DNA of 64,000 nt from an uncultured Gammaproteobacteria bacterium (GTDB lineage Bacteria > Patescibacteriota > Patescibacteriia > Patescibacteriales > GWC2-42-12), in contig CAZLKB010000003.1 of assembly GCA_964560005.1 (NCBI GenBank), positions 40,712 to 104,711 on the forward strand, written 5' to 3'. The translations under genes were made by a program, and so were the position numbers. Shown here piece after piece: positions 4,365 through 41,660 of this stretch (positions are counted from its first letter, which is position 1; every line of letters starts with the position of its first letter). The notes under the pieces were generated by a model. It saw only the letters and a list, made by a program, of their open reading frames with translations. It had not been told where the DNA came from and did no database searches.

Positions 4365-4490
4365 ATAATAATGTAAGCTTCAAAATTAAAAAATCAAAAT
4401 GACAATGCAAAATTTAAAATTAGCAATTTAAAAAAATTTTAATTTTAAACTGTCATTTTTAACTTTGATTTTTACATTTTGAATTTTTAT

Positions 4491-4612
4491 GTGCGTCGTG
4501 CTGGAATCGAAGCTCCTCTGTGCCGACCTCGTCGCTAAAATTGGATAACAGGACGACCGTCAGCTTAAAAATCCGCCAGCTGGCGGATCTGCGACTGAGC
4601 TAACTCTATGCA
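4491..4612 (-). pseudogene. Degenerate partial copy of tRNA-Lys (intact 3' T-arm/acceptor copy plus a decayed body)
   Basis: 4491-4511 (gtgcgtcgtgctggaatcgaa) is identical to 4634-4654 at the 3' end of tRNA-Lys. 4555-4605 retains D-arm and anticodon-loop remnants (ttagctcag ... ttttaagctga). The 5' acceptor strand is lost. Confidence 0.4.
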
Positions 4613-4634
4613 TTTTCTATTTTTATATTGTTAG

Positions 4635-4707
4635 TGCGTCGTGCTGGAATCGAACCAGCGACCATCAGCTTAAAAGGCTGTTGCTCTGCCAGCTGAGCTA
4701 ACGACGC
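4635..4707 (-). tRNA. tRNA-Lys (anticodon TTT)
   Basis: Reverse complement GCGTCGT-TA-GCTC-AGCTGGCA-GAGC-A-ACAGC-CTTTTAA-GCTGA-TGGTC-GCTGG-TTCGATT-CCAGC-ACGACGC-A is a canonical cloverleaf. Confidence 0.85.
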
Positions 4708-4867
4708 AAAATTAAAAAGTCCGCTTCCGAGGACGAATCAATTAATAATAAAATAACATATATATTTAAAAAAGGCAAGATTAAGGTGGAAAGATGGTGC
4801 ACGGTAAGTTAAAAAATAACGATTTTTTACTCTTGATAAAACTCGGCCGCCAGTGTAACATAACTGT

Positions 4868-6262
4868 ATGGCTGAAAATAAAACTCCAATCTCAAAATTA
4901 CCGCCGCAAAATCTTGAGGCTGAAAGCTCTCTCTTGGGCTGCTTAATGATTGATAAAGACGCGATCTTCAAAATAGCCGACACTTTACAGCCCGAAGATT
5001 TTTATAAAGACAGTAATCGCCTGATTTACGCCGCCATGCGCGATTTGTATGTCCACCATGAACCTATAGATATTTTAACCTTAACGGCGAAGCTGGAAGA
5101 AAAAAACCAGCTGGAAAAGATAAACGGCCGAACCTATTTAGCCGAACTAGGCAATACCGTCGCCACCTCGGCTCATGTAGTCTTCTATTCAAATATCATA
5201 CAGCGCAAGGCTACTCTAAGGCGCCTCTTAAGCGCTTCGGCTGAAATAAGCGAACTGGGGTACCGTGAAGACGAGGAAGTTGAAACAATCCTGGATGAAG
5301 CTGAGCAAAAATTATTCGGCGTTTCGCAAAAATATTTAAAAAATGTCTTCTTGCCGATTGATAATCTATTGACCGAAGCTTTTGACAGAATTGACGAACT
5401 GCACAAGCAAAGCGGAAAATTACGCGGCCTGCCTACCGGTTTTCCCGATTTGGACAATCTATTGGCCGGATTGCAAAAATCAGATTTAGTCATATTGGCG
5501 GCCAGGCCAAGCGTCGGCAAAACTTCTTTAGCTCTTGACATCGCCCGACTTTCCGCCATTAAAAGCAAAATCCCGGTCGGCATCTTTTCTTTAGAAATGA
5601 GCAAAGAGCAATTGGTTGACCGCATGCTTTGCGCCCAGGCTAATGTCAGCTTATGGCGCATGCGCACGGGCAAGCTATCGGACAAAGAAGAGGACAATGA
5701 TTTTTCGCGCATCGGCGATGCTATGGGGCAATTATCCGAAGCGCCGATTTATATTGATGATTCGGCCAGCTCAAATATCATGGAAATAAGATCTAAAGCG
5801 CGCCGGCTTCAAGTGGAAAAAGGCTTGGGCCTCTTGGTTATTGACTATCTTCAACTCATGGAAGGGCGCGGCAAATACGGTGATAATCGCGTCCAAGAAG
5901 TCGCTGAAATAACCAGAGGCATGAAGGCTATCGCCCGCGAATTGAATATCCCGGTACTGGCCTTATCCCAGCTCGCGCGCGCGGTAGAAATGAGCAAGCC
6001 GGCCATACCTCGGCTCGCCCATTTAAGAGAGTCCGGCTCAATTGAGCAGGATGCCGATGTGGTCATATTTATTTACCGTAAAGCCGCCGATCGCGGATAT
6101 AATTATGATGAGTTATCGGAAGCCGACAAACACAACGCTGAAATTCATATCGCCAAGCATAGAAACGGGCCAACCGGAAAAATAAATTTATTTTTTGATG
6201 AAAATACCGTAAGTTTTAAAAGTGTTGCTAAATCCAGCCAGGGAGATCAACCGGAATACTAA
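4868..6262 (+). CDS. dnaB: Replicative DNA helicase DnaB
   Basis: N-terminal DnaB domain (LPPQNLEAESSLLGCLM), Walker A ARPSVGKTSLALDIA and the RecA-like C-terminal domain. Confidence 0.95.
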   Translation: MAENKTPISKLPPQNLEAESSLLGCLMIDKDAIFKIADTLQPEDFYKDSNRLIYAAMRDLYVHHEPIDILTLTAKLEEKNQLEKINGRTYLAELGNTVATSAHVVFYSNIIQRKATLRRLLSASAEISELGYREDEEVETILDEAEQKLFGVSQKYLKNVFLPIDNLLTEAFDRIDELHKQSGKLRGLPTGFPDLDNLLAGLQKSDLVILAARPSVGKTSLALDIARLSAIKSKIPVGIFSLEMSKEQLVDRMLCAQANVSLWRMRTGKLSDKEEDNDFSRIGDAMGQLSEAPIYIDDSASSNIMEIRSKARRLQVEKGLGLLVIDYLQLMEGRGKYGDNRVQEVAEITRGMKAIARELNIPVLALSQLARAVEMSKPAIPRLAHLRESGSIEQDADVVIFIYRKAADRGYNYDELSEADKHNAEIHIAKHRNGPTGKINLFFDENTVSFKSVAKSSQGDQPEY

Positions 6263-6275
6263 TAATCGATCAGTC

Positions 6276-6308
6276 ATTGCGGGCTTGACCCGCAATCTAG
6301 ATTTTTTT
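6276..6308 (+). terminator. Rho-independent terminator after dnaB
   Basis: attgcgggcttgacccgcaat hairpin followed by a T run. A second near-identical hairpin (attgcggctcgggggccgcaat) lies at 6322-6343. Confidence 0.6.
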
Positions 6309-6356
6309 CACTAATAATTAGATTGCGGCTCGGGGGCCGCAATGACAATATAATTT

Positions 6357-6632
6357 ATGTTCAATAAACTAAAACAATTCAGAGACTTAAGAAGCCAGGC
6401 TAAAACTTTGCAAAATGCCTTGGCTCAAGAATCGGTAGAATATGAAAAAAACGGCGTTAAAGCGGTCATGAACGGCAATATGGAAATCACGCGATTGACA
6501 ATCGACGCGGGCATCGCCAACGACAGGCTGCAAAATATTTTAACCGAAGTAATAAACGAAACCATCAAGCGGGCTCAGAAAATCATGGCAAAAAAGGTGC
6601 AGGAGATGGGAGGAATACAAGGGTTCAATTAA
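6357..6632 (+). CDS. ybaB: Nucleoid-associated protein YbaB/EbfC
   Basis: 91 aa with the YbaB-family pattern (MNGNMEITRLTID...), sitting in the classic ybaB-recR pair. Confidence 0.85.
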   Translation: MFNKLKQFRDLRSQAKTLQNALAQESVEYEKNGVKAVMNGNMEITRLTIDAGIANDRLQNILTEVINETIKRAQKIMAKKVQEMGGIQGFN

Positions 6633-6737
6633 AAATGTAAAAATTAAAATGAAAAATGACAGTTAAAAATGTAAAATTAATAATTTTTAATTTTGCATTG
6701 TCATTTTACATTTTGAGATTTACATTTTACATTTTGC

Positions 6738-7334
6738 ATGCGCTATCCTGCTTCCATCCAAAACCTAATTGATCACTTTAGCAAACTGCCCACGGTCGGG
6801 CCTAAAACCGCCGAGCGGTATGTTTTTTATTTATTAAAGGCGCATCCGGAGAGCCTCCAGCAGTTCGCTCAGGCCATTGCCGAATTAAAAGAAAAAACCA
6901 CCATCTGCCGAACCTGCCTGGCAATCGCCGAAACCAACCCCTGCTCAATCTGCGCCGATCCAAGAAGAAACCGTTCGGTAATCTGCCTGGTGGCTGACAC
7001 CCGCGACCTCTTAGCCATTGAATCTACCAAGCAATTCAGCGGTCTCTACCAAGTTTTAGGCGGCGTAATCAACACGATCGAAGGCGCCGGACCGGAGCGG
7101 CTTAATCTAAAACAGCTGACCGGCAGGCTGAAACAACAACCTATTAAAGAAATTATTATGGCCTTTAATCCCGACCTGGAAGGCGAAACCACATCCCTAT
7201 ACATAGCCAAACTTTTAAAGAGCCATAAATTAAAAATCACCCGCCTGGCCAAGGGTCTGCCCATGGGCGCTGACCTGGAATACGCCGACGAAATAACTCT
7301 AAGCAACGCCTTAAAATATAGAAGCGAGATATAA
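6738..7334 (+). CDS. recR: Recombination protein RecR
   Basis: HhH motif LPTVGPKTAERYVFYLL, a C4 zinc finger (CRTCLAIAETNPCSIC) and a Toprim domain. Confidence 0.95.
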   Translation: MRYPASIQNLIDHFSKLPTVGPKTAERYVFYLLKAHPESLQQFAQAIAELKEKTTICRTCLAIAETNPCSICADPRRNRSVICLVADTRDLLAIESTKQFSGLYQVLGGVINTIEGAGPERLNLKQLTGRLKQQPIKEIIMAFNPDLEGETTSLYIAKLLKSHKLKITRLAKGLPMGADLEYADEITLSNALKYRSEI

Positions 7335-7366
7335 AAAAACGGCGAGAATGAACTCGTCGTTGAGCT

Positions 7367-7492
7367 TAATAGCTGAGTAGCACTTCAATGCCCTGCTTGA
7401 TTGCCGCCCAGATGATAATAATAACCGGGCTAAGCATCATCAGAACCGCCAGTGCCAGACCGCACCTTTTTGTTATGATTTTAGCATGCATA
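7367..7492 (-). CDS. Small hydrophobic peptide (41 aa), hypothetical
   Basis: MHAKIITKRCGLALAVLMMLSPVIIIIWAAIKQGIEVLLSY forms a single TM helix. It is GC-richer than its surroundings, divergent from the 111-aa ORF, and the pair is flanked by duplicated hairpins. Not in the ORF track because it is under 60 aa. Confidence 0.25.
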
Positions 7493-7582
7493 AAACTTTT
7501 TCCAAAGGACTGATTACATTATAAATTAAATACCTTAGCGAAGTCAAGCTGAAAAAATTTAATTGAAATAAAATATAAAAAT

Positions 7583-7918
7583 ATGGGAAAAATCGTTTCA
7601 ATAAAATTAAACCAGGCTCAAATTGCCTTGGAAGACTGCCGTGTTCGCCTATCCGTAAAATACAAGGGGGTATATTGTTCGGAAATCAAAATTTGGAAGT
7701 TACCTGAATCCGGCAACCTCCTTAATCTGCTGAAAATTAAAAAAACCTACTGGGCGGCTTACGGCGATTCGGCTAAATTTTTGCAGGGCTGGTTATATCA
7801 AGACGATTTAATGAAAATTTTGGCTTCTAAAATTGAAAAATGTTCGAATGAAAGTGATCTAAAAGCGTTATGTTTAGATCTAAATAGAATAATAGGAAAA
7901 AAAAATCACGATTTATAA
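7583..7918 (+). CDS. Hypothetical protein (111 aa)
   Basis: Clean ORF ending in the repeated hairpin terminator cggcgagaatcaactcgccg at 7925-7947. No recognisable family. Confidence 0.5.
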   Translation: MGKIVSIKLNQAQIALEDCRVRLSVKYKGVYCSEIKIWKLPESGNLLNLLKIKKTYWAAYGDSAKFLQGWLYQDDLMKILASKIEKCSNESDLKALCLDLNRIIGKKNHDL

Positions 7919-8203
7919 TAAAAAACGGCGAGAATCAACTCGCCGCTGAACCGGATAACGCAATGCCGCATCAGTTGGTTTGCTGGCATTATTTCAACGA
8001 CGACACTAATGCCGTCACAATCGCCGCAACGCAGAAAGTGGCTGAACCGAAAATTAGGACCAAGCAAAATAAGGGGGCGGCTTGAAAAGAACATTTTACT
8101 ATTTTTATTATCATTAGTCTCTCCTTTTGTAGGTTACCTATTTTATTATATATGCCTTTATTGCAATGTCAAATTAATAAGCAATAATAACTGTAAATAT
8201 AAC

Positions 8204-8238
8204 TAAAAAAACACGAGATCTCTAACCTCGTGTTTTTT
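8204..8238 (-). terminator. Rho-independent terminator downstream of rplU
   Basis: acacgag-atctctaac-ctcgtgt hairpin flanked by A and T runs, so it can act bidirectionally. It is followed by the GC-rich element at 8241-8290. Confidence 0.6.
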
Positions 8239-8293
8239 ACCCCCTTGATAAATTTATCCGCCTCTGGCGGAGGGGGTTGGGGGGATTTATCTT

Positions 8294-8620
8294 CTATACT
8301 TTAGTAATTTCCACTTTGGTAAACGGCTGGTGATGGCCGACATTCCTCTTATATCTGGTTTTATTCTTAAATTTAATGACGCTGATTTTTTTATTTCTCC
8401 CCTGCTCAATAACCTTGCCTTCCACCAGTTCGCCCAAGAACGGCTTGCCCAATTCAACTTTAACTTGCCCTGAGCCAATTGAAGGGTCTCCTTCTGCCGC
8501 CATTAGGGTTTGGAACTTTAAAACTTCGCCTGCCTTGGCGTCTATTTTTTCAATTTTTAAATTTTGCCCTTGGCTCACTTTATATTGTTTGCCGCCGGTT
8601 TTAATTACTGCGATTTTCAT
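8294..8620 (-). CDS. rplU: 50S ribosomal protein L21
   Basis: MKIAVIKTGGKQYKVSQGQNLKIEKI... aligns with bL21 along its whole length. Confidence 0.9.
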   Translation of the reverse strand: MKIAVIKTGGKQYKVSQGQNLKIEKIDAKAGEVLKFQTLMAAEGDPSIGSGQVKVELGKPFLGELVEGKVIEQGRNKKISVIKFKNKTRYKRNVGHHQPFTKVEITKV

Positions 8621-8705
8621 AGTCCTGTAATACTAATACTGCAAATGACACGCGAATACTGCGAATTTGTAGTATTTGAATTATAATTTATTGTATTGAT
8701 TAATC

Positions 8706-9734
8706 TTAAACATTTTTTTTATTTCTGTCAAGGTAAGCAAAAAATACTACCGCCAAGAGCATCATGCCGACCAGCAAAGCCAGGGCATAAACTTTACCAA
8801 TGCTTTGCAAAAACAAGGCGCTAAAGCCGAAGATTACGGCTAGAGCGTAATATAGCAAAACCGATTTTCTGACGGTAAGGCCCAAGGTAAGCAGCCGAAA
8901 ATGCAGATGCTTCCGATCCGCGATTTTAAACGGATTCTGGCCGGCCGCCAGGCGCCGCAGTATGGTCCAAACCACATCTAAGATCGGTATGCCCATAACT
9001 AGAAGAGCTATGGCGATTTTTCCGCCGGAAATTATCGCTAGCACCCCTAAGGCGTAGCCTAAAAATAAAGAACCGCCTTCGCCCAAAAAAATACGAGCCG
9101 GATGCCAATTAAAAAATAAAAATCCCAGGCAGGCCGCGGTTAAGACCAGCGCGGCGAAACCGATATCCGGCTGATAATATTTTTGCGATAAAGTAAAAAG
9201 AAATATAATGAATGCGCCGATAGCGGTCAAGCCGGTGACCAGGCCGTCCAGACCGTCGAGCAGCTTGGTCGTATACATCATGCCTAGAAGCCAGAGAGCA
9301 ATTAAAATAGCCGAAGCCGAGCCTAAGTATAAATAACCGCCCAGCGGGTTGGTAATTTTTTCAATCTCCACTCCGCCGGCGATCAGGCTGATAACGGCTA
9401 AACAAGGAAAAATAAACTGATAAACCGGTTTTAAATTATATTTATCGTCCAGATATCCGCCGATCATTAAAAAGCAGGCGCCGATGAAAAACGAGAGCCA
9501 ATGCCTTACGAGAAGATTGCCGGTAAGTATTTTATCCTGAAAAACGAATAAAATAATAAAAAAAGCCAAAAAAACCGCCAGACCGCCGAGCAAGGGAATA
9601 TTACCTTGATGAAATTTTCTCTCTTTATCCGGCTGATCGGTAATCTTAAATTTTTTAGCTAAACGCAAAACTAAAAAAGTCAGCCCTAAGGCTAACAAAA
9701 TGGTAATAACAAAAATTTCAAAATAAAAAAGCAT
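8706..9734 (-). CDS. Polyprenyl-phosphate N-acetylhexosamine-1-phosphate transferase (WecA/TagO/MraY family, GT4)
   Basis: Polytopic membrane protein with the GGYLDDKYNL and DGLDGL motifs of the MraY/WecA family. The true mraY, with a KSGTPTMGG motif, is at 52244-53293. Confidence 0.75.
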   Translation of the reverse strand: MLFYFEIFVITILLALGLTFLVLRLAKKFKITDQPDKERKFHQGNIPLLGGLAVFLAFFIILFVFQDKILTGNLLVRHWLSFFIGACFLMIGGYLDDKYNLKPVYQFIFPCLAVISLIAGGVEIEKITNPLGGYLYLGSASAILIALWLLGMMYTTKLLDGLDGLVTGLTAIGAFIIFLFTLSQKYYQPDIGFAALVLTAACLGFLFFNWHPARIFLGEGGSLFLGYALGVLAIISGGKIAIALLVMGIPILDVVWTILRRLAAGQNPFKIADRKHLHFRLLTLGLTVRKSVLLYYALAVIFGFSALFLQSIGKVYALALLVGMMLLAVVFFAYLDRNKKNV

Positions 9735-9994
9735 AAATTATTGTTCTTATCGAACCCTTCTTTTTTTATATGCTGGTTTTCTGCCACGCTTTCCATGGCT
9801 ATCATAAATTGAAATATCTCTCTGATTATAATTTAATCTATTTTTCAAAATATTTTTTTCTACTTCGTCCACAATTTTTTCTTGATCGTCTGTAAGCTTA
9901 GAGGGGTCAGGCTGGCTAAACGGCTCTCTAATCTCATATTCTTTCTCAAGATACGAAGGCTCTCTGCTTATGTCGTTTAAATCAATTTTCTTTA

Positions 9995-10152: not shown

Positions 10153-10226
10153 TAAAATTATGCGGCCTCGTCTATCAAGACATTAAACTAGTTGTTATTA
10201 ATTGAAAATTGATAATTGAAAATTAT

Positions 10227-12983
10227 TTATAGCTCTCTCCCCCGCTTGACGCTGATCTTGGCTTCGCCGTCTATTACCACCGTATCCCTTCTCTTAATGC
10301 CGTCTTTTAAAACTATATTGGCTATTTCGTTTTCAATTTTTTCTTGAAGCAGGCGCCTGAGCGGGCGGGCGCCGAATTTCGGGTCAAACCCCAGAGCGGC
10401 TAATTTCTTAATTCCGGTTTCTTCATATTCCAGGCCGATGCCCTTGGCTTCCAATAATCGGGATACTTTTTTTAACATCAATTTAGTAATGCTTTCCACA
10501 TCCCCGAGGCTCAAGGGTTTAAATACTATAACGCCGTCAAAACGGTTAATCAATTCCGGCCTGATAAATTTATTTAATTGATCATTAACCAAGGACTCTT
10601 TAATTTGTTCAAGCGGAGTTCCCTTCTTGATTTCGTCCTGAATATAGACCGCGCCGATATTGGAGGTGGCGATTATAATACTAGAGGTAAAATCAATTGT
10701 CCGCCCCTGCCCGTCGGTCAGCCGGCCGTCGTCCATTACCTGCAAAAATAAATTCAATATATCAGGATGGGCTTTTTCTATTTCATCCAATAAAATGAGG
10801 CAAAACGGCGCTTTACGCACGGCTTCGGTTAAATAGCCTAAAATACCGTCCGGCGAACCGATCATTTTTTCTAGAGATTCCGGCCGTTGATACTCGCTCA
10901 TATCCAGCCTAACCATATAGTTCTCATTGCCGAAATAAACTTCCGCTACCGTCTTGGCTAATTCGGTCTTACCCACTCCGGTCGGCCCCAGAAAAAGAAA
11001 ATTGGCTATCGGCCTCTTGGTTTCCCTTAACTCGGTTCTGGCTCGCCTTAGACTGGCCGCGACCATAGCGACGGCTTCTACCTGGCCAACCATCCGTTTA
11101 TGCATATTCTCTTCTAAATCCAGCAAAGCTCCACTCTCCTTCTCCGTAATTTTAGTCAAAGGAATTTTAGTCTTCCGGCTAATGACGCTCGCTACATCTT
11201 CGGCGTCAACTATGCTATTTACGCCTTTATTCGTTGATACTTCAACCGCGATTGATTCCAAAACATCAACCGCTTTGGCCGGTAAAAATTTATCGTGAAT
11301 ATATTTAGCGGTTAATTCCACGGCTTTAGCAATACTGTCATAAGTGAAATAGACTTTATATTTTGCTTCATAAAAACCGATCTTGCTTTCAATCATCTGA
11401 ATGGCTAAATTCATATCAGGCTCGCTGACTTCAACTTTGGCCATGGCGTCGCCCAGCGGCTTATTTTCAACATATTTGGCATAATTTTTTTCACTGACCG
11501 AGGCTAAGCAAATAAATTCGCGGCGGCTTAAGGCATTGGATAAAACTTCAGATAATTCCAGGCTTTCTTCCTGGCCCGCGGTAATACCCATTAAATTTTC
11601 AATATTGCTAATATATAAAATAATATTTCTCGCCCGCGCCACTTCGTCAATAATAACCAAGAGCCTTTCTTCGGCTTTGGCTGGAGTCGCTCCGCTTAAG
11701 AGCCGGGGAATATCCAATTCCAGCAATCTTTTGTCTTTCAGGATTTTCGGCACATCTTCTTCCACCATCGCCCGCGCCACCTGACCGATGATCATATCTT
11801 TGCCTGCGCCGTTCGGACCGTAAAGCAATACTCCGCTTCTGCCGCTTTCCAAGTTTTGAAAAATCGCCTGGACTTCTCTCTCCCTGCCGACGCATAACTC
11901 CAACCTGCCCCATTTGGCGGCCAAGGTTAAGTCGTAAGAAAAGTGATTTAAAATCGGCGTAGCCACGGCGGTATAAGCTCGGTCCATTGAGCTGGCGGGC
12001 TTAAACCGGGAAGCTCGGCGATAAAGCCGGTAATTTTCCACCAATCGCTCGCTGATAACAAACCACTGAATGACATTATTAATTTTATCCCGGTCAATGC
12101 CCAGATCATAAAGTATTTCAGTTAAATTCTGATCGCGTTTAAGGCAGGGCAAGATGAAATTAATCGGATCTACTTTCTTTTGGCCTAAAGCCTCGGCATT
12201 AATATAGCTTTCCAGGAAAATCTCTTTTAATTCCAAAGATAAGCCGGTAGAATCGGCGCCGGCTTCCAAAGATAATAGCTGATTTTTTAACTTGCTGATC
12301 AATTTATCCGGATCGGCGTTAAGGCGTGAAAATAGGGCGGCCGCCGAATTATCTCTTAAGAGGCAAAAAAATAAATGAATCGGCTTAATCTCGCGGTGCT
12401 TGGCAAAATTCGCCAAAAGAAAAGCCTGCTCTACGACTTTAAACGCGCTCAAGCTAAAACCGTTTGATACTTCAATTTTGTATTTTCCCTTGCTGCTTCT
12501 AAACTCCAGCCAGTTATTAGGCGTTAGGTTCTCAATAGCCTCTCCATATTTAATTTTTTTTATTTTTTTCTTAGACGCTTCCTCCTCGCTTAAACGATAG
12601 ATGACAAACATGTCGGCGATTAAACTCACCCAAAATATAAGAATAAAAATACTTTTAACGCGCCAAAAGGCCAAAACGGTAAAATCGCCGGTATTCAAGC
12701 TGGCTAAATAAACCCAATAAGCTAAAGCCAGTAAACCGCATAAACCGGCGGCATAAGCCAATAAATTAACCACCAGGTGCAAGCTGGTTTTTAAATGCCT
12801 TAATTTTATAATCGGACGGCTTAACTCTAAATTGCTAAAATAAAATCTATTTTGATAATAAGCGATTAAGCCGTGGCCAAAACAATTTTTACATATCAGG
12901 CCGTGATCCAATACGCCGGCGCTGTTGCAAGCGGAGCAGGTGATGAATTGAATTGAATTTTTATTTATATCTTGTTTAGGCAT
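10227..12983 (-). CDS. ClpC/ClpB-like AAA+ chaperone with N-terminal zinc ribbon and transmembrane segments; first ATPase domain degenerate
   Basis: N-terminus CSACNSAGV...CKNCFGHG plus two hydrophobic helices. Clp N-domain repeats follow. NBD1 has Walker A GPNGAGKD and no DE in Walker B (IILYISNIENL). NBD2 is canonical (GPTGVGKTELAK; LILLDEIEKAHPD). The C-terminal D2-small domain is present. Confidence 0.85.
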   Translation of the reverse strand: MPKQDINKNSIQFITCSACNSAGVLDHGLICKNCFGHGLIAYYQNRFYFSNLELSRPIIKLRHLKTSLHLVVNLLAYAAGLCGLLALAYWVYLASLNTGDFTVLAFWRVKSIFILIFWVSLIADMFVIYRLSEEEASKKKIKKIKYGEAIENLTPNNWLEFRSSKGKYKIEVSNGFSLSAFKVVEQAFLLANFAKHREIKPIHLFFCLLRDNSAAALFSRLNADPDKLISKLKNQLLSLEAGADSTGLSLELKEIFLESYINAEALGQKKVDPINFILPCLKRDQNLTEILYDLGIDRDKINNVIQWFVISERLVENYRLYRRASRFKPASSMDRAYTAVATPILNHFSYDLTLAAKWGRLELCVGREREVQAIFQNLESGRSGVLLYGPNGAGKDMIIGQVARAMVEEDVPKILKDKRLLELDIPRLLSGATPAKAEERLLVIIDEVARARNIILYISNIENLMGITAGQEESLELSEVLSNALSRREFICLASVSEKNYAKYVENKPLGDAMAKVEVSEPDMNLAIQMIESKIGFYEAKYKVYFTYDSIAKAVELTAKYIHDKFLPAKAVDVLESIAVEVSTNKGVNSIVDAEDVASVISRKTKIPLTKITEKESGALLDLEENMHKRMVGQVEAVAMVAASLRRARTELRETKRPIANFLFLGPTGVGKTELAKTVAEVYFGNENYMVRLDMSEYQRPESLEKMIGSPDGILGYLTEAVRKAPFCLILLDEIEKAHPDILNLFLQVMDDGRLTDGQGRTIDFTSSIIIATSNIGAVYIQDEIKKGTPLEQIKESLVNDQLNKFIRPELINRFDGVIVFKPLSLGDVESITKLMLKKVSRLLEAKGIGLEYEETGIKKLAALGFDPKFGARPLRRLLQEKIENEIANIVLKDGIKRRDTVVIDGEAKISVKRGREL

Positions 12984-13350: not shown

Positions 13351-13518
13351 AAAAAATTTAAAATTTAAAAATCAAAGTTAAAAATGACAATGTAAAATTT
13401 AAAAAATTATTATATTCAAACATTTTGCATTTTTAACTGTCATTTTGCATTTTGAGATTTTAACTTTACAATTTTATTATACCATATTCCCCTTTTTTGC
13501 ACCAAGCGCCGGCGAGCC

Positions 13519-14453: not shown

Positions 14454-14576
14454 CCCTACAAATCAACAAATCCATTACAAATATACAAATTAGGCTTCTT
14501 ATATTTGTAAATTTGTAGCAAAATTTGTAAATTTGTGGGTATATAAAGATGATATAATCACTAAACTAATTAAGGT

Positions 14577-14996
14577 ATGAAAAAAATATTAACTAAAGTG
14601 AAACTGCAAATCCCGGCCGGCCAAGCCAATCCCGCTCCTCCGGTAGGACCGGCCTTAGGCCAGCACGGCTTGAATATCTCGCAATTCTGCCAGGCATTTA
14701 ATGAAAAAACCAAGGCTAAAATGGGCGATATCACACCGGTAGAAATAACCATCTACGAAGACCGAACTTACACATTTATTTTAAAGACCCCGCCGGCCGC
14801 GGAATTAATCAAAAAATACGCTAAAATTCCTAAAGGTTCGGGCAAGCCGCTGGCCGAAAAAGTCGGTAGTATTACTAAAGCTCAACTGAAAGAAATTGCT
14901 GAAATCAAAATGCCGGACCTGAATGCGCATGATATTGAAGCGGCTATGAGAATCGTCGCCGGCACCGCACGGCAAATGGGAGTGGAGATTAAGTAG
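14577..14996 (+). CDS. rplK: 50S ribosomal protein L11
   Basis: [26 protein letters not shown] matches the bL11 signature. Confidence 0.95.
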
Positions 14997-15118
14997 TTGA
15001 AAATTAAAAAATCAAAATGTAAAATTACAGTTTAAAATGCAAAGTTTAAATTTATAAATTTTAAATTTTACATTGTCATTTTTAACTTTAATTTTTGCAT
15101 TTTACATTAATAACTAAT
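14997..15118. repeat. Family A palindromic AT-rich intergenic element (aaaatgtaaaat/gacaatg type) between rplK and rplA
   Basis: aaaatcaaaatgtaaaattacagtttaaaatgcaaag...aaattttacattgtcatttttaactttaatttttgcattttacatt has imperfect inverted symmetry. One of at least seven copies in the window. Confidence 0.7.
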
Positions 15119-15164
15119 TTGTGGAAGCTCTGAATCAAAGAGCGATATTACCACGAAATAAATT

Positions 15165-19461: not shown

Positions 19462-19581
19462 TATAAATTTTTAATTTTTAATTTTATAAATAATTTTTAA
19501 TATACTAATTTTTAATGAAAATTTTCTAAATTTATTTTGATATTAAAAATTTAGATATTATTTAAAAAATTAAAAATTTCA

Positions 19582-23308: not shown

Positions 23309-23360
23309 ATAAATATAATTTGTAGTATTTGAAATTAATTTGTAGTATTCGCATTATGCA

Positions 23361-25452: not shown

Positions 25453-25971
25453 ATGGCCGACCTAAAAAATCCGCATCTCACCAGGCTTAGCTGGGATGAA
25501 ACTTTCATGAACTTGGCGCTTTTAATCGCGCAAAGAACCGCTTGCCGCTTCCACATTGTCGGCGCAGTTTTCGTTGATGATAACAATCGGATAATTTCCC
25601 TGGGCTACAACGGTCCGTCCGAAGGCGATTACCACTGCAACGAAGTCGGCTGCGCTAAAATTGACGGCAATCCGGTGACGAAAAAAATAGAACGCTGCCG
25701 CGGCGTGCACGCGGAAATTAACGGGATTATCAATTCGCAAAATACCAGCCGCCTAAAAGGCGGCGCACTTTACACCACGGTTCTCCCCTGCTACGACTGC
25801 ATGAAAGCTATAAATAACGCCGGTATTAAAGAGGTCGTCTACAAGGAAGTCTATAAGCGCATCCAGACCGGTGGAGAAAAATTTGAGGAAGAACGCGAAG
25901 TTTGGAACTTGGCGGAAAAACGCGGCATAAAAATTAGGAAGTATGAAGGAAAGGTATATTTAAAAATTTAA
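25453..25971 (+). CDS. dCMP deaminase (ComEB-like cytidine/deoxycytidylate deaminase)
   Basis: Zinc-binding HAEINGI ... PCYDCMKAI motifs. Confidence 0.85.
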   Translation: MADLKNPHLTRLSWDETFMNLALLIAQRTACRFHIVGAVFVDDNNRIISLGYNGPSEGDYHCNEVGCAKIDGNPVTKKIERCRGVHAEINGIINSQNTSRLKGGALYTTVLPCYDCMKAINNAGIKEVVYKEVYKRIQTGGEKFEEEREVWNLAEKRGIKIRKYEGKVYLKI

Positions 25972-26083
25972 AATGTAAATCTCAAAATGTAAAATAACAA
26001 TGCAAAGTGTAAAATTACTTCTTAAGACATTTTGCATTTTAAACTGTCATTTTCAATTTTGATTTTTACATTTTACATTATCT
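25962..26083. repeat. Family A palindromic AT-rich intergenic element
   Basis: aaaatgtaaatctcaaaatgtaaaataacaatgcaaagtgtaaaatt...cattttgcattttaaactgtcattttcaattttgatttttacattttacatt. Confidence 0.7.
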
Positions 26084-27645: not shown

Positions 27646-27710
27646 TAACTAATAATTAAAAATTTAATCATTCATTGAAAATTGAGAATTGAATATTGAA
27701 AATTAATTTT

Positions 27711-34378: not shown

Positions 34379-34383
34379 AGCTC

Positions 34384-35673
34384 TTACTTAATTATTTCCC
34401 CCTCTAAACCAAAGTCTCTAGCCTTCACAATCATAACTTTAACAAATTTTCCAACTAAACCTTTTATCGATTCGGAATCTTCGACCACTGTTAATTTGCC
34501 GGTCCCGGTTCTCGCTAACCAATCGCCTGCTTTATTTTTGCCATCAATCAAAACTTCTATAGTTTTACCTAGATATTTTTTATTATTAAAAAACGCGGTT
34601 TTTTTCAATACTTCATTCAGCTCTTCTTCTCTGCGCCGTTTTTCCTGCCTTGATACATTATCCTTCAACTTGGCTGCTTCAGTTCCTGGCCTTGAGCTAT
34701 ATTGGGCCAGATAAGCCATATCAAATTTAACTTGTTTAAACAATTTTACCGAATTATTAAATTGCTTCTTGGTTTCGCCCGGAAAACCGACGATCAGATC
34801 CGTGGTTATGCTCGCGTCCGGCATAACGATTCTAATTTTTTTTATTAAGCTTATATAGTGTTCAATCGTATACTTTCTGTTCATTTTTTTAAGGACTTCA
34901 TTATCCCCGGCTTGCGCCGGCAGATGAACCTGATGGCAGACTTTCTGGCACTGCGCCATGGTTTTAATCAGTTTAGCCGACATATCCTTAGGATGACTGG
35001 TAAAAAACCTAACCCAAAAATTTCCCTTAATATTGTTAACCATGTTCAGCAGGTCGGCGAAGTCAATTTTACCCGACCGATAGCTATTTACATTCTGTGC
35101 AATTAATATAATCTCTTTATAGCCTTTGTCAACTAAATTTTTTACCTCATTTAAAATGTCGTCTGCTTTCCGATAAACTTCCCGGCCGCGCGCGTATGGC
35201 ACAACGCAATACGAGCAAAAATTATTACAGCCATTGCCGATCGGCACCAAGGCGGAAAATTTAGAGTTATATTTTGGTTTTATTGATAAATAATCATTTT
35301 TATTTTGCACATCTTTTTGAAAATTAATTTTTGAAAATTCATTGAAAATTGAAAATTGAAAATTGAAAATTTCCTTAATCTGCATCCATTCATCCACATA
35401 CTTTTCCAATCTTCTTTTAACATCTTTTCTCTCCGATAAACAACCGGTTAAAATAACTTCTGCTTTTTTGTTTTCCTTTTTAATCCTAGGTATTAAACCG
35501 TAAATTCTATTTTCAGCAGATTGCCTCACTCCGCAAGTATTAATCACAACCAAATCAGCCTGATATTTATTATCAATATATTTATAACCCTTGTTTCCCA
35601 ACAAGCCAGCCAATCTTTCGCTGTCTGATTCATTCATCTGGCAACCAAAGGTGGTGATATGATAAGTCTTCAT
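34384..35673 (-). CDS. miaB: tRNA-i6A37 methylthiotransferase MiaB (radical SAM MTTase) carrying a heptamer-repeat-encoded linker
   Basis: MTTase N-domain (ITTFGCQMNESDSERLAG), radical SAM CNNFCSYC and a TRAM C-terminus. The linker FNFQFSIFNEFSKINFQ is encoded by (AATTTTC)n at 35315-35371. Confidence 0.9.
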   Translation of the reverse strand: MKTYHITTFGCQMNESDSERLAGLLGNKGYKYIDNKYQADLVVINTCGVRQSAENRIYGLIPRIKKENKKAEVILTGCLSERKDVKRRLEKYVDEWMQIKEIFNFQFSIFNEFSKINFQKDVQNKNDYLSIKPKYNSKFSALVPIGNGCNNFCSYCVVPYARGREVYRKADDILNEVKNLVDKGYKEIILIAQNVNSYRSGKIDFADLLNMVNNIKGNFWVRFFTSHPKDMSAKLIKTMAQCQKVCHQVHLPAQAGDNEVLKKMNRKYTIEHYISLIKKIRIVMPDASITTDLIVGFPGETKKQFNNSVKLFKQVKFDMAYLAQYSSRPGTEAAKLKDNVSRQEKRRREEELNEVLKKTAFFNNKKYLGKTIEVLIDGKNKAGDWLARTGTGKLTVVEDSESIKGLVGKFVKVMIVKARDFGLEGEIIK

Positions 35674-35675
35674 AA

Positions 35676-35790
35676 AAATTAAAAATGTAAAATGTAAATC
35701 TCAAAATGACAATGTAAAATTTAAAATTATTAAATTAATAAATTTACATTTTGAACTGTCATTTTTCATTTTGATTTTTACATTTTACAT
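35676..35790. repeat. Family A palindromic AT-rich intergenic element between miaB and dnaJ
   Basis: aaaatgtaaaatgtaaatctcaaaatgacaatgtaaaatttaaaatt...tttacattttgaactgtcatttttcattttgatttttacattttacattt. Confidence 0.7.
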
Positions 35791-35794
35791 TTTT

Positions 35795-37200: not shown

Positions 37201-37809
37201 CTATTTACTTCTTTTCCGTAAACTCCCCTTCAATCGGTCCTTGATCCTTTTTCTTATTTCTTCAGTAAATACTCGCTTGGAGATTTCAGTATAAAATTTA
37301 TTATTTTTGATTCTAAAATCGCACATTGATGCCCGGCCGGCTTTATAATATTTTAAATCGGCTTCAAACTGTTCCTTGAAAGAATCGGATAAAGCATCGG
37401 CATCAATTAAAATTCTTTTATTTATCTCTCTAGGGTTAGTGAATTTATGCGCCTTTATTATCTCGGCAACTTTCTTAATTTTTCTCGGTTCATAATTAAG
37501 TTCGCGCAAAACTTTAGCCGCGATTATGGCTGAATATTTAAGATGCAATTTTAACGCCTTAATTCTATCTTTTTTGTCTTGGCTTTTCTGCAACTTCTTA
37601 GAAACCTTGCTCCAGCCGATGTCATGTAAAATTGCCGCCGGTATAAGCAGACTTTCGTCGCCTATGCCAGACTTAATTATTATTTCCATGGCCTTAACCA
37701 CGCCCTTAACATGCGTAAGATCTTTTTCTCTTCCGGCTTTTATGTAAGGCAGAGCTAATTTCCAGATTTTTTGGTATTGTTTGTCCATTTTTTTATTTAG
37801 TCGCGACAA
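37201..37809 (-). CDS. HD-domain phosphohydrolase
   Basis: H...HD motif (LLIPAAILHDIGWSK). The C-terminal 15 codons are encoded by a 44-bp copy of the dnaK 3' end read in another frame. Confidence 0.75.
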   Translation of the reverse strand: MSRLNKKMDKQYQKIWKLALPYIKAGREKDLTHVKGVVKAMEIIIKSGIGDESLLIPAAILHDIGWSKVSKKLQKSQDKKDRIKALKLHLKYSAIIAAKVLRELNYEPRKIKKVAEIIKAHKFTNPREINKRILIDADALSDSFKEQFEADLKYYKAGRASMCDFRIKNNKFYTEISKRVFTEEIRKRIKDRLKGSLRKRSK

Positions 37810-38590
37810 CTATCATATCCTCCGATTTCTCGTTGTACAATTTACCTCTCCAATCGGCATAAACTTCGCATGATTTAAACCCAACGCGTCTACACAATTT
37901 TACGAACTCATCTTTCGTGTAAACCTGAACGGAATAATCTTTTCTTTCTCTTCTCCCATCATTTTTTAACAAAATCCATGAACCGTTTATCCTCTTGGCA
38001 ATATCGTTATAGTTTTCCACTATTTTAAGTTTATCGCCGGATTTAAGAATTCTTATCTCGTTAAGTTTATATTCGCCGTTCACAATTCTCGGGATATTTA
38101 CATCAGTATGCATTAAAAATTTTCCGCCTGGTCTTAATGCCTTAAAGAAATTCATCAAAACTTTGTAATTGTCTTCTTCCTTATCAAAAAACCCAAACGA
38201 AAAAAACATATTTATGACTGCATCAAACTCGGAGTCGTATTTTATATCAATCATGTTCTCCTTGATAAATTCTACTTTAACAAGATCTTCCCTGGCGGCA
38301 ACTTTGGCTTTTTCTAAATGATAAGAATTAATATCCGACCCAGTCATCTTAAAACCTTTTTTGGCTAAACTAATACTGTGTCGGCCGTAGCCACAGGGAA
38401 TATCCAATATACGAGCGTCCGGTTGCAAGTTTAACAGCTTAATCACGCCTTTTACTTCCGCGTCAGTCCGTTGCCCCAGATTTTGTTTTTCACCTGAAAG
38501 ATACCCTTCTTTTGAATCATCCCCTTGCATATAAAAACGACCGAAAAATCCGTATTTTTCTTGCCACCAAAAAGTTTTTTTATTTGTCAT
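37793..38590 (-). CDS. Class I SAM-dependent methyltransferase
   Basis: Motif I ILDIPCGYGRHSISLAKKG. The start is taken at MTNKKTFWW (38590); the ORF-track extension to 38689 overlaps the dnaK 3' end. Confidence 0.8.
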   Translation of the reverse strand: MTNKKTFWWQEKYGFFGRFYMQGDDSKEGYLSGEKQNLGQRTDAEVKGVIKLLNLQPDARILDIPCGYGRHSISLAKKGFKMTGSDINSYHLEKAKVAAREDLVKVEFIKENMIDIKYDSEFDAVINMFFSFGFFDKEEDNYKVLMNFFKALRPGGKFLMHTDVNIPRIVNGEYKLNEIRILKSGDKLKIVENYNDIAKRINGSWILLKNDGRRERKDYSVQVYTKDEFVKLCRRVGFKSCEVYADWRGKLYNEKSEDMIVVATK

Positions 38591-38603
38591 AACAAAAAAT
38601 TTG

Positions 38604-40568
38604 TTATTTCTTTTCCGTAAACTCCCCTTCAATCGGCCCTTGATCTTTTTTCTGTTCGCCTGCTCCTGACCCGGGTTGCGCGCCGGCATTCGCCTGTTCT
38701 GATCCTGGTATAGGTCCGGTACTTTGCGCTCCTTGGGCGGATTGCGCCGACTGATACATAGCCGCGCCGATCTTTTGCGCCGTAGTATTTAATTCTTCCA
38801 TCTTCTTTTTTATCTCATCAAACTTATCGCTATCTTTTACCTTCTTTAAGGCCTCAACTTTTTCTTCCAATTCTTTCTTATCTTCAGGCTTAACCTTATC
38901 TCCAGCCTCTTTCAGCATTTTTTCCGTTTGGAAAATTACGGCCTCGGCCTGATTTTTGATTTCCACCTGTTCTTTTTTCTTTTTGTCTTCCTCGGCGTGC
39001 AGTTCGGCTTCCTTTTTCATTTTTTCCACTTCTTCTTTAGATAAACCGGAAGAAGCGGTAATGGTAATTTTTTGCTCCCTGCTCGTAGCCTTATCTTTGG
39101 CTTTAACATTTAAGATGCCGTTGGCGTCAATATCAAAAGAGACTTCCACTTGCGGAATGCCGCGAGGCGCCGAGGGTATGCCGTCCAAAATAAATCTGCC
39201 CAAAGTCTTATTATCCCCGGCCATCGGCCGCTCGCCCTGTAAGACATGGATTTCCACGCTGGTCTGACCGTCGGCCGCAGTGGAGAAAACTTGCGACTTT
39301 GAAGTCGGGATCGTGGTATTTCGTTCAATTAAAGGCGTGGCCACGCCGCCCAGAGTTTCAATGCCCAGAGTTAAAGGAGTTACATCTAATAGTAAAACAT
39401 CTTTAACATCGCCCTGGAGAACCCCGGCTTGCACGGCCGCGCCTAAGGCCACGACCTCGTCAGGATTGACAGTCAAATTCGGCTCCTTGCCGAAAAATTC
39501 TTTAACCGTCTTTAAGACTAAGGGCATGCGGGTCATGCCGCCGACCATGAGTACTTCCTCTATATCTTTTACATCAACGCCAGCGTCTTTAAGCGCGGCT
39601 CTAACCGGAGCGATGGTCGCGGCCACTAAGTCGCCGGTCAGCTCTTCTAATTTCGCTCTGGTCATCTTCATGACTAAGTGTAAGGGCCGGCCGCTCGGGT
39701 CAACCGTAATAAACGGCTGATTGATTTCGGTTTCCGGCATAGTGGATAACTCAATCTTTGCTTTTTCCGCCGCTTCTTTTATTCTTTGGAGAGACAAGGG
39801 GTCTTTAGATAAGTCTGCGCCTTGATCTTTCTTAAACTGTTCAATAATCCATTTAATTATCCTTTGATCAAAATCGTCGCCGCCTAAGTGCGTATCGCCG
39901 TTCGTAGATTTAACTTCTACCGTGTCCGAACTGACATCCAAAATGGAAATATCAAAGGTTCCGCCGCCTAAATCGTAAACCGCGATTTGCTGACCCTTCT
40001 TCTTTTCAAAGCCGTAAGCTAGCGCGGCTGCGGTCGGCTCGTTTATGATTCTTTTTACATCTAAGCCGGCAATGCGCCCAGCGTCCTTGGTCGCTTGCCT
40101 CTGCGCGTCATTAAAATAGGCTGGTACGGTTATGATCGCTTCGGTGATTTTCTCGCCGATCTTGGCTTCAGCGTCGGCTTTCAACTTGGCCAGTATCATG
40201 GCCGAAATTTCCTGCGGCGTGTATTCTTTCGCCTGCCCAGAGCCTGCCGAAGGGCCGATTTTCACTTTAACGCCGCCATTAGCTTTAATAATTTTATACG
40301 GCATAACTTTCAAATCGCGCTGGACTTCTTCATCTTCAAAACTGCGGCCGATTAACCGTTTAATAGAAAAGATAGTGTTTTCCGGATTGGTTACGGCTTG
40401 GCGCTTGGCCGACATGCCGACCAATCGTTCGCCGTTTTTCGTAATCGCGACAATAGAGGGCGTGGTTCTCATGCCTTCAATGTTTTCAATGATTTTCGGT
40501 TGTCCGCCTTCGATTATCGCCATGGCGCTGTTGGTAGTGCCTAAATCAATACCTAATATCTTACTCAT
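38604..40568 (-). CDS. dnaK: Chaperone DnaK (Hsp70)
   Basis: [18 protein letters not shown], the EEVD-less C-terminus and full-length Hsp70 architecture. Confidence 0.97.
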
Positions 40569-40599
40569 AATTTTTATTATTAAATTAATTAATCAAACA

Positions 40600-40971
40600 T
40601 TAATTTTTTCTGATGGGCTTCTTGGTAAAAATTATTTTGCTTTTTTGATTTTTTGCTTTTTCACGAATAAAATCATATTTAGGATCGTCCGTTAAGTCAG
40701 CCAAGTTGTATATCATTCTTTTTATATCATGCGGACCCGGCGCATCTCCTAACTCTTCACATTGCCTTAAAATTATTTCAATTTCATTTGCAGGTAGCGA
40801 ATGAATATAAGCCATTTCAGTACTTATAGCACAATCTTGCCATTCAGGTTTTATGGCTTTTTTTAATGCCGCCATATCTGCATCTGAAATTTGCAAGGTT
40901 CTCTCCTCAAGTTCTGCCATAAAAGCCATATCTGAAGGAAAATTTGGTTTATTCTTGATGATTTCTTTCAT
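40600..40971 (-). CDS. Hypothetical protein (123 aa) co-transcribed upstream of dnaK
   Basis: Clean ORF ending 29 nt before the dnaK start. No family recognised. Confidence 0.5.
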   Translation of the reverse strand: MKEIIKNKPNFPSDMAFMAELEERTLQISDADMAALKKAIKPEWQDCAISTEMAYIHSLPANEIEIILRQCEELGDAPGPHDIKRMIYNLADLTDDPKYDFIREKAKNQKSKIIFTKKPIRKN

Positions 40972-41020
40972 AAAGCTATAAATTAATTCGTAATTCTTAA
41001 TTCGTAATTGGTAATTAATT

Positions 41021-41452
41021 TTATTTCTTCGCCGTCTTAATCTTAATCGTCTTTGGTTTGGCTTCCGGCGCCTTAGGTACGGCTATTTTCAGTATGCCAT
41101 TAACCGCTTCGGCCGAAGCTTTTTCGCCGATTACATGGGTCGGCAAGGGCACGCTTCGGTAAAAACTACCGCGCCTGATTTCTTTCCGATAATAATTTTT
41201 GTCTTCCACTTCGCTTTTCTTTTCGTTTTCACCCTTGATGATTAAAACATCATTTTCAATGGAAATGTCCACTTTTTCCGGGTCAATCCCGGCTAATTGC
41301 GTTTCCACATAGACTTTATCCTTATCCTGATAAATGTCCACGGCCGGAACCAAGCCGGTAAAACCGCCCCGAGCGGGCATGTAGTCGTCAAACATTTTGT
41401 CCATGTCCTCGAATGGTTCAAGGAATGGCGTCCACTTAATTATCGGTAACAT
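41021..41452 (-). CDS. Small heat shock protein (Hsp20/alpha-crystallin family)
   Basis: Alpha-crystallin domain (PAVDIYQDKDKVYVETQLAGIDPEKVDISIENDVLIIKGE...FYRSVPLP). Confidence 0.9.
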   Translation of the reverse strand: MLPIIKWTPFLEPFEDMDKMFDDYMPARGGFTGLVPAVDIYQDKDKVYVETQLAGIDPEKVDISIENDVLIIKGENEKKSEVEDKNYYRKEIRRGSFYRSVPLPTHVIGEKASAEAVNGILKIAVPKAPEAKPKTIKIKTAKK

Positions 41453-41510
41453 ATATTTGTTCTCCTTCCCCGCTCAAACTATATTCCAAAGCTTGAGCGA
41501 TAATTATATT

Positions 41511-41660
41511 ATAATTTAAAATGTAAATCTCAAAATGTAAAATGACAGTTGAAAATGCAAAATGTCTAAATTAATAATTTTAAACTTTACATTGTCATTG
41601 CTCTGCAATGACCCCGCATCTGCGGGGTGCTAGCGGAGCTAGCATTTTACATTTTGATTT
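41511..41660. repeat. Family A palindromic element carrying an inserted GC-rich hairpin, between grpE and hsp20
   Basis: aaaatgtaaatctcaaaatgtaaaatgacagttgaaaatgcaaaatg...actttacattgtcatt plus ctctgcaatgaccccgcatctgcggggtgctagcggagctagc. Confidence 0.65.

Follow-up and report, generated by a model that had tools for sequence, protein, structure and literature searches.

ERIC sequences, named for an enterobacterial repetitive intergenic consensus, are imperfect palindromes of ~120 bp that lie in transcribed intergenic regions, in either orientation, in several families of one bacterial group. Their copy number varies widely between genomes, their presence or absence differs at orthologous sites, and they can carry internal insertions. 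Another dispersed repeat, termed family A here, is found in a 64,000-nucleotide stretch of DNA (the window; positions 40,712 to 104,711 of contig CAZLKB010000003.1, assembly GCA_964560005.1) from a member of the Patescibacteria, also known as the candidate phyla radiation (CPR). With moderate confidence, family A can be described as a mobile, non-coding, non-autonomous interspersed intergenic repeat of ~115 bp, which resembles ERIC sequences and miniature transposable elements with inverted repeats (MITEs) in its behaviour.

Several other systems offer points of comparison. The Correia elements of Neisseria have 26-bp terminal inverted repeats, a TA duplication, a site for the integration host factor IHF and proven cleavage by RNase III. 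Repetitive extragenic palindromic (REP) sequences are GC-rich hairpins of 20-40 nt with a 5′ GTAG, and a short conserved motif beside the palindrome is probably what a dedicated enzyme recognises; they frequently form clusters of alternating orientation and have an associated RAYT gene. In T4-type phages the promoter-early stem-loop (PeSL) cassettes, and in T7 the intercistronic RNase III sites, are repeated intergenic modules of ~100 nt at gene boundaries. No means of mobilisation is known for ERIC sequences, which have been reported to affect mRNA decay (PMC10969869). Prokaryotic MITEs, including the Correia/NEMIS elements, are small, AT-rich and non-coding, show inverted-repeat symmetry, target AT-rich intergenic DNA and are co-transcribed with their neighbours, and their transcripts can form stem-loops (PMC10969869). 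The Rickettsia palindromic elements comprise several families of 100-150-bp repeats of unknown mobility, which reside in a reduced genome either between genes or in frame within them (PMC10969869).

Family A in the window and across genomes

The original prediction located seven AT-rich elements in the window. A hidden Markov model (HMM) built from these copies and searched with nhmmer across the 64 kb recovers exactly seven, at 65-84 bits and E=1e-19 to 2e-25, with envelopes within a few bases of the predicted positions and no eighth copy below E=0.1 (Table 1). The pattern ATGACAATG-N28-48-AACTGTCATTTT matches five times in the window, against 0.00 matches expected from 100 shuffles, and the copies have a GC content of 13-30% compared with 41% for the window. 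The neighbours named at the outset (ybaB/recR, dCMP deaminase/dcd, miaB/dnaJ, grpE/hsp20, rplK/rplA and tRNA) are confirmed by Pfam and ARAGORN. The source of the window is a relative of Falkowbacteria, its RecR showing 81-85% identity to the closest named proteins. Copy 5 contains the upstream gene's stop codon (open reading frame [ORF] end 25971). A GC-rich hairpin had been noticed inside copy 7; it is a 44-nt insert that resembles the GTCATTGCGAG...CTCGCAATGACA elements of relatives. The suggestion that the elements are themselves insertion targets is supported by this insert and by the foreign centres of copies in L169 and L017 (L numbers denote the loci and contigs compared). Next to copy 1, a tRNA-Lys-like fragment (4493-4633) has the tRNA-Lys 3′ end (GTGCGTCGTGCTGGAATCGAA) duplicated at 4490-4511 and 4633-4654, with an anticodon-arm-like segment between the two; neither ARAGORN nor Rfam calls it as a tRNA.

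Table 1. Positions of the family A copies in the window, of the insert in copy 7 and of the promoter next to copy 3
Feature	Position	Strand	Score	Context
Copy 1	4368-4485	+ (canonical on +)	67.0 bits, E=4e-20	Core match 4399-4459; neighbours tRNA-Thr 4291-4364 (-; ARAGORN) and tRNA-Lys-like fragment
Copy 2	6627-6735	- (canonical on -)	65.4 bits	Core match 6653-6704; fills spacer from ybaB stop to recR start (Pfam YbaB, RecR)
Copy 3	13353-13472	+	70.1 bits	Between orf121 start (13350, -) and conserved promoter block
Extended -10 promoter of orf121 (TGGTATAAT)	13477-13485	-		Outside and upstream of copy 3; read from sequence
Copy 4	14995-15110	-	66.7 bits	Between rplK stop and conserved L1-leader hairpin preceding rplA
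Copy 5	25963-26079	+	83.9 bits	Between dCMP deaminase and dcd (Pfam)
Copy 6	35675-35791	+	74.5 bits	Fills spacer between dnaJ stop and miaB start, both genes on -
Copy 7	41513-41681	-	82.1 bits	Between grpE stop and hsp20 upstream region; nested insert inside
GC-rich insert, 44 nt	41600-41643			In canonical left arm of copy 7, beside CAATGACAATG; three small hairpins

Outside the window, the two-core pattern picked out 82 stretches when 185,579 species-representative genomes were scanned, and the HMM confirms 84 full-length copies in ~60 of them, nearly all from Patescibacteria. The consensus is present in ~45 CPR assemblies. The hosts belong largely to the Parcubacteria group (Falkowbacteria, Doudnabacteria, Zambryskibacteria, Liptonbacteria, Yanofskybacteria, Taylorbacteria, Colwellbacteria, Moranbacteria and Minisyncoccales); Gottesmanbacteria, of the Microgenomates group, are also among them, and copies occur in many metagenome-assembled genomes labelled Saccharibacteria (labels as deposited). 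Pattern matches in Coprococcus, Roseburia, Bacteroidales, Sulfurovum and others received no HMM confirmation and are attributed to chance. The GC content of the element stays at 0.19 +/- 0.05 across host loci of 0.30-0.55 (r = 0.33). Since it is independent of host GC, family A is a genuine repeat family rather than AT-rich background, and its recurrence beyond the window is established by the confirmed copies. The distribution is patchy: there are seven copies in 42 kb here versus two in 422 kb of rplA loci from 80 relatives (65-90% amino-acid identity), and seven syntenic loci of relatives hold one weak and one truncated copy. The family had not been recognised from its sequence, and this still holds. 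Rfam at gathering score reports only two tRNAs in the window and no family A match; at an E-value of 10 or 1 it adds only weak chance matches of <=30 bits, far under the gathering scores. Literature searches, core words included, found no published description of family A.

The copies also leave a trace in assemblies. Short-read contigs L001, from the same organism, and L171 terminate within copy 2 and copy 7, respectively, and one 5,785-nt short-read contig covers precisely the interval from copy 6 to copy 7. Because same-organism short-read contigs end within copies, such repeats help explain why CPR assemblies are fragmented.

The family A consensus is ~115 nt long, individual copies measure ~117 +/- 8 nt, and stop codons occur in all frames. 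The core consists of AAAATGACAATG...(28-48 nt)...AACTGTCATTTT and, when oriented, reads AAAATGACAATGyAAAATTnAAAATT - variable centre - ATTTTrCATTTTnAACTGTCATTTTnnnTTTTGATnTTTACATTTT. The left arm is made of AAAANNN heptads ending in AAAATGACAATG; the right arm starts with AACTGTCATTTT and continues in NNNTTTT heptads, and both arms have a period of 7 in Tandem Repeats Finder. Conservation is 95-100% in the A/T tracts, while the three positions between them are variable; as all copies outside the window were ascertained through an exact 21-nt pattern, conservation of the core is inflated. The distance between the two cores shows no helical phasing. The ends read roughly AATKYAAAATG...CATTTTRCATT, with conservation fading outward, fuzzy boundaries and arms that are inverted at the level of the A/T tracts. 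The arms differ in sequence, one carrying TGACAATG and the other TGACAGTT (as reverse complement), so that family A has polarity. By their pairwise scores the window copies fall into two orientation groups (four on +, three on -), and each copy scores 20-35 bits better on one strand than on the opposite strand. The two halves had been read as imperfect inverted copies of each other; the arms are indeed quasi-symmetric, but the orientation classes and strand-specific scores show that the element is not a true palindrome.

Every window copy folds, as foreseen, into a long A:U hairpin, with minimum free energies of -21 to -34 kcal/mol (-54 for copy 7 with its insert) and z-scores of -2 to -8 against dinucleotide shuffles. 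The pairing, however, is not maintained by compensatory change, and a conserved RNA hairpin is rejected by three independent tests. For 82 distinct copies, pairing in the consensus hairpin amounts to 81.6% within copies and to 82.3% when left and right arms come from different copies, and the chimeric hairpins fold at least as well as the real ones (-25.8 versus -24.2 kcal/mol). With 67 copies as input, RNAalifold retains no pairs beyond the nine invariant ones, AAAATGACA/TGTCATTTT, and its covariation term is 0. Paired cells amount to 84.2%, against 84.6% in shuffles (419 of 500 shuffles equal or exceed the observed value), and the variable positions are mostly unpaired cells, for example in 48/67, 45/67 and 40/67 copies. 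Because the arms do not covary and chimeras fold equally well, foldability merely follows from the quasi-symmetric consensus. Nothing indicates selection for an RNA hairpin, and the two arms do not co-evolve. An intrinsic terminator was likewise rejected, the stems being A:U only while canonical GC-rich terminators occur elsewhere in the genome.

Turnover at orthologous junctions

Orthologous sites, compared between related species, differ widely in what they contain, and this is the most telling evidence. At rplK/rplA the site is empty in L095, L099, L100 and L101, where 8-18 nt of A/T precede the conserved L1 leader. Shortened orthologous family A copies occupy it in L088 and L096, and unrelated palindromes or other heptad elements in L085, L086 and L089-L094. 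At ybaB/recR, L167 has a GC-rich GTCATTGCGAG element, L168 another long inverted repeat, L169 a 781-aa ORF (7645-9990, without a Pfam match) and L170 a heptad palindrome of CAAATGA words. The orf121/secE junction is ~30 nt long (empty) in L168 and holds other elements in L167 and L170. Between dnaJ and miaB, family B (described below) is found in L172, a GC-rich GTCATTGCGAG element in L173 and a 3-nt spacer, TAAAATATG, in L174. Finally, grpE/hsp20 contains a truncated family A copy, oriented as in the window, together with another GC-rich palindrome in L173, family B in L172 and a small hairpin in L174. Heptad indels separate orthologous copies, and those in L088, L096 and L173 are decayed. 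With orthologous sites either empty or otherwise filled, these alignments support the view that family A behaves as inserted DNA. At strain level, exact-protein look-ups for polymorphism returned only contigs breaking at the element, or nothing.

Some of these junctions have features of their own. A conserved hairpin, TTTGTGGGAG...CGCACCACGAAA, lies at 15118-15160 just upstream of rplA and is kept at the orthologous position in L085-L101; it looks like the L1-binding leader between rplK and rplA, not called by Rfam, and its loop has taken up heptad elements in L091 and L093. Also in L169, at 2710-5852, a weak Transposase_20 (IS110-like) gene precedes 1.8 kb of non-coding sequence rich in short repeats.

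The sites used are short AT-only stop/start junctions, a 5′ untranslated region (UTR) or positions beside tRNA genes, and either orientation is found. Among the 84 copies, the element ends mostly fall within 0-6 nt of the stop and start codons. By longest-ORF gene calling in the loci, 76 copies have both neighbours called, 62 of them co-directional, 10 divergent and 4 convergent, and orientation relative to the downstream gene shows no preference (33 versus 29). The downstream genes are unrelated housekeeping genes, and the 149 Pfam families among 74 such proteins led to rejection of a regulon operator. Placement between stop and start codons inside operons thus holds for most copies, but not for copy 3, which lies in a 5′ UTR downstream of a promoter. 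The TGgTATAAT block of orf121 is conserved in four of four genomes (window, L167, L168, L170); a conserved secE promoter (TTGACA-17-TAnTAT) likewise lies outside copy 3. Since both flanking promoters lie outside the element, copy 3 would, as read from the sequence, have to be transcribed as the 5′ UTR of orf121-clpB.

Elements of this kind extend to phages. The strict two-core pattern gave only chance matches in IMG/VR, and BLAST of one copy against phage and plasmid collections gave no match, possibly through low-complexity masking. A looser arm pattern combined with the HMM reveals cousin elements, at 20-34 bits and near full length, in nine phage contigs. One of these, L176, has genes for a major capsid protein and an SPP1-like portal protein; its GC content is 53% overall, while its elements have 23-28%. 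In L232 cousins fill four consecutive junctions of the portal-scaffold-capsid module. Among relatives with capsids 69-88% identical, two contigs have a similar GC-rich element following the capsid gene, and the version in L265 reads GTCATTGCGAG as in CPR hosts. As family A has cousins in phages and the GTCATTGCGAG family occurs in phages and in hosts, the two share a repeat pool.

Inserted, non-autonomous DNA is the description that fits best, because it covers the broad but patchy spread, gain, loss and replacement at orthologous sites, decayed copies, either orientation, unrelated neighbours, nested insertions and presence in phages. Family A would accordingly spread within and between CPR genomes, with the phages that share the repeat pool as plausible vehicles. 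This would require either a trans-acting enzyme that reads the conserved (C)AATGACA motif, found in several co-resident repeat families too, or microhomology-mediated recombination at A/T runs. An unconventional enzyme or a microhomology route is proposed because there is no duplication, the A/T ends are fuzzy and the targets are A/T only. Once inserted, the element would be transcribed together with its neighbours. A recognisable Shine-Dalgarno sequence precedes only ~6 of 66 called genes in the window, most starts being preceded by plain A/T-rich sequence; its absence beside the elements is therefore not special, the whole genome being Shine-Dalgarno-poor. Insertion may be tolerated because the host genomes hardly use Shine-Dalgarno sequences, in which case effects on expression would be secondary.

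Several observations weigh against mobility. No target-site duplication was seen in four pairs of 86-92% identical copies with unrelated flanks, nor on comparing filled and empty orthologous sites. In the most similar pairs similarity fades gradually at the ends, and no sharp termini were found. Neither a mobilising enzyme nor an autonomous parent, with arms 0.3-4 kb apart, was found in 1.16 Mb of loci (+/-4 kb around copies), and no transposase is present among the most frequent Pfam families of flanking genes. Identity in columns not fixed by the search pattern is 0.77 within genomes and 0.73 between them; since the former barely exceeds the latter, nothing points to a recent burst, although a few pairs reach 86-92%. 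Conservation of the A4/T4 phasing and of the core far exceeds that of the inter-tract positions, which could mean function, an argument weakened by ascertainment through the exact 21-nt pattern. To these can be added the ybaB/recR spacer, never empty in the five genomes compared, and four related phages that keep the capsid-flanking elements in the same orientation.

Other mobile or arrayed elements were considered and set aside. An IS200/IS605-type palindrome-associated transposable element, which would insert 3′ of a fixed tetra- or pentanucleotide and show strand bias relative to replication, is rejected because the left flanks lack a common motif and the window has four + and three - copies under a uniformly negative GC skew. 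Integron attC sites, whose R''/L''...L'/R' boxes (RYYYAAC...GTTRRRY) bound mobile cassettes downstream of intI, do not match either, the flanks being essential genes in conserved synteny and the boxes (examined by eye) not consistently present. Tandem interspaced guide RNAs (tigRNAs) are defined by a tandem array next to a tas gene in which box C (RUGAUGA) and box D (CUGA) flank two spacers (10.64898/2026.09.09.750476); family A copies are single and scattered among housekeeping genes, and their cores, AUGACAAUG and AACUGUCA, are not box C/D. In L040, three identical tandem 182-nt units (3908-4377) each comprise a family A copy and a degenerate 5′ end of the downstream gene; they may be a segmental tandem duplication or an assembly artefact.

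Competing explanations

The strongest rival, itself rather unlikely, holds that family A and the families that replace it are functional cis-modules at gene boundaries, spreading as mobile regulatory cassettes in the manner of the T4-type promoter-stem-loop cassettes. They would act by transcription attenuation, as boundaries for RNA processing and decay, or by translation insulation between cistrons. Such a role would account for the way most copies abut stop and start codons, for the insert, usually a long palindromic element, that ybaB/recR holds in five of five genomes, for the filled junctions of L232, and for elements that stay AT-rich even in hosts of 53-55% GC. Strong conservation of tract phasing suits it too, as it suits the iterons considered next. 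The absence of arm covariation speaks against it, as does a stem of 4-5-bp A:U blocks broken at every heptad, which would be a poor RNase III substrate or terminator in a genome with ordinary GC-rich terminators and sigma-70 promoters elsewhere. Close relatives, moreover, are empty without visible replacement at dnaJ/miaB (L174) and at rplK/rplA (four loci). The phage elements cut both ways. Orthologous capsid-flanking elements retained in L176, L232 and L229 are 79-92% identical, more than synonymous third positions (60-67%), but low complexity inflates such values (0.63 for shuffled sequences, 0.75 for non-orthologous copies), so that constraint is only suggested; an initial reading as purifying selection was downgraded after these controls. 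In related phages, with capsids 69-88% identical, different period-7 sequences occupy that junction.

The omega ribbon-helix-helix protein of plasmid pSM19035 binds heptad operator/centromere arrays. By analogy, family A might be an array of 7-bp iterons, uniformly oriented within each arm and with the arms facing each other, bound cooperatively by a heptad-reading protein that serves nucleoid organisation, silencing or partition; this seems improbable. The period of 7 on both arms, the A4 tracts and a symmetry that resides in tract arrangement rather than pairing would all agree with it. Other occupants of the same junctions are also period-7, down to a plain non-palindromic (GAACATT)x6 tandem repeat at the capsid junction of phage L291, and autocorrelation in the spacers of the phage contigs peaks clearly at lags 7, 14 and 21. 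In the window a lag-7 signal is missing from spacers other than family A, and period 7 as a general trait of the genome's spacers was rejected for the window on that ground. No candidate protein was found, the words differ between families at one junction, which is hard to reconcile with a single binder, the core spacing is unphased, and sites are lost without replacement.

It is very unlikely that the arms are back-to-back outward sigma-70 promoters of the form (T/C)TGTCA-17 nt-TACATT, giving leaderless or near-leaderless transcripts of the flanking genes. The putative spacing is apt, with TGTCA 17 nt from TACATT, the element end ~7 nt further on and the start codon 0-6 nt beyond that, and of 76 copies, 72 point towards one gene start or more. 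A sigma-70 promoter should have an invariant -11A and -7T at a spacing of 16-18 nt, but the -11 A of the presumed -10 box falls in the variable NNN and is not conserved, and the excess of divergent over convergent arrangements is not significant. Around copy 3 the promoters lie outside and transcription must run through the element. The TTGTCA arm would have the better -35 box, yet orientations are balanced, and polarity as a stronger outward promoter on that arm was rejected on this count. That no element exists, and that low-complexity spacers with fuzzy ends and heptad indels between orthologous copies were shaped by local heptad slippage alone, can practically be dismissed: a ~115-nt word order with an asymmetric core recurs in dozens of distant genomes at E down to 1e-20, the pattern is expected 0 times by chance, and the window HMM, the constancy of GC across hosts and the lack of lag-7 in other window spacers refute ordinary spacers.

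Other repeat families and known systems

Family A shares its genome and its junctions with further repeats. A GC-rich palindromic family with termini TGTCATTGCGAG...CTCGCAATGACA, for which no literature was found, occurs in L167 (9895-9960), L173 (13565-13790), L089, L094 and L265. The word CAATGACA or TGTCATTG is also present in the heptad family of L170, and family B has CAATGA/TCATTG at its centre. Counted over the spacers of the window, family A excluded, and of seven relatives, CAATGAC is found 15 times against 3.1 expected, at five times its density in coding sequence. A recognition motif common to several repeat families is suggested by these counts.

Family B consists of intergenic palindromes of TTGAAAA / AATTTTC heptads with the T-rich arm first (10174-10231, 27647-27704, 52108-52237 and 55643-55806). 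Perfect in-frame (AATTTTC)n repeats are present within miaB (35300-35371) and, at 50297-50354, within a murG-like ORF (49794-50927), where they are translated as ...IFNFQFSIFNEF... and ...NFQFSIFNFQFN...; those of MiaB belong to a linker between domains, which in L174 has 17 residues fewer. A long palindromic element at 48108-48330 (GCGAGCATAGAAAAATTTAGGATTAGATTTGGCCTAAAATTT...) has a close relative in the rplK/rplA spacers of L168 (17285-17564) and L090, and on account of that position is taken as a further mobile family. Short tandem arrays of TAATTCG / CGAATTA, with period 7 or 11, and of ATTTGTAG / CTACAAAT lie upstream of genes (40972-41020, 46526-46560, 53294-53398; also 14454-14576, 23309-23360, 45764-45810). 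A 120-nt spacer at 19462-19581 has 5% GC and A/T repeats of periods 7 and 15. Finally, a 50-nt direct repeat of 94% identity (37205-37254 and 38604-38653) lies at the 3′ ends of ORF 37201-37809 and dnaK (38604-40568), which therefore share C-terminal coding sequence.

A tentative and rather doubtful extension would unite families A and B with the GTCATTGCGAG elements and the cousins from phages in one CPR-specific superfamily of gene-boundary elements, read by a protein that recognises (C)AATGACA and 7-nt-phased tracts. Such a reader might be an enzyme dedicated to mobilisation, or else a DNA- or RNA-binding factor that reads heptads. If so, interchangeable phage-borne cassettes would punctuate operons in organisms largely free of Shine-Dalgarno sequences. 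To our knowledge, very few non-coding sequences are common across the CPR; here a ~115-nt consensus is common to the Parcubacteria and Microgenomates groups, with a diverged form in a phage group. Shared repeat families could mark links between phages and hosts in uncultured lineages. Several families swapping at the same junctions also make a tractable system for studying how reduced genomes tolerate or use inserted DNA, and for finding what moves it.

The original prediction likened the elements to REP sequences, bacterial interspersed mosaic elements (BIMEs) or MITEs. Family A and REP/BIME are both abundant extragenic palindromic repeats between operon genes with a short conserved motif, but the defining features of the latter fail, since family A copies are ~115 nt long, AT-rich (19% GC), single and devoid of GTAG. 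The likeness to MITEs stands in part. Family A shares the traits listed above for these elements and is small, non-coding, multi-copy and polymorphic for insertion between species; it differs in having no target-site duplication, seemingly no sharp termini, its best-conserved part inside and no related insertion sequence found around the copies, and none of the Correia features named at the outset was seen. The phage cousins punctuate a portal-capsid module much as PeSL cassettes and T7 sites punctuate gene boundaries, without a demonstrable conserved promoter or well-paired stem. The in-frame heptads of family B in miaB and the murG-like gene resemble the in-frame insertions of Rickettsia palindromic elements; family A differs from these in host group and sequence, and no copy was seen inside a gene.

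ERIC sequences come closest. Family A is like them in size, placement, freedom of orientation, patchiness, turnover and internal insertions. The likeness is one of behaviour only: family A is built of phased A4N3 heptads, has ~19% GC, resides in Patescibacteria, shows no compensatory evolution between its arms and has cousins in phages, and sequence homology with ERIC is implausible on grounds of composition and host group. A member of none of these families, family A thus appears nearest in behaviour to ERIC and, more loosely, to MITEs and the Rickettsia palindromic elements.

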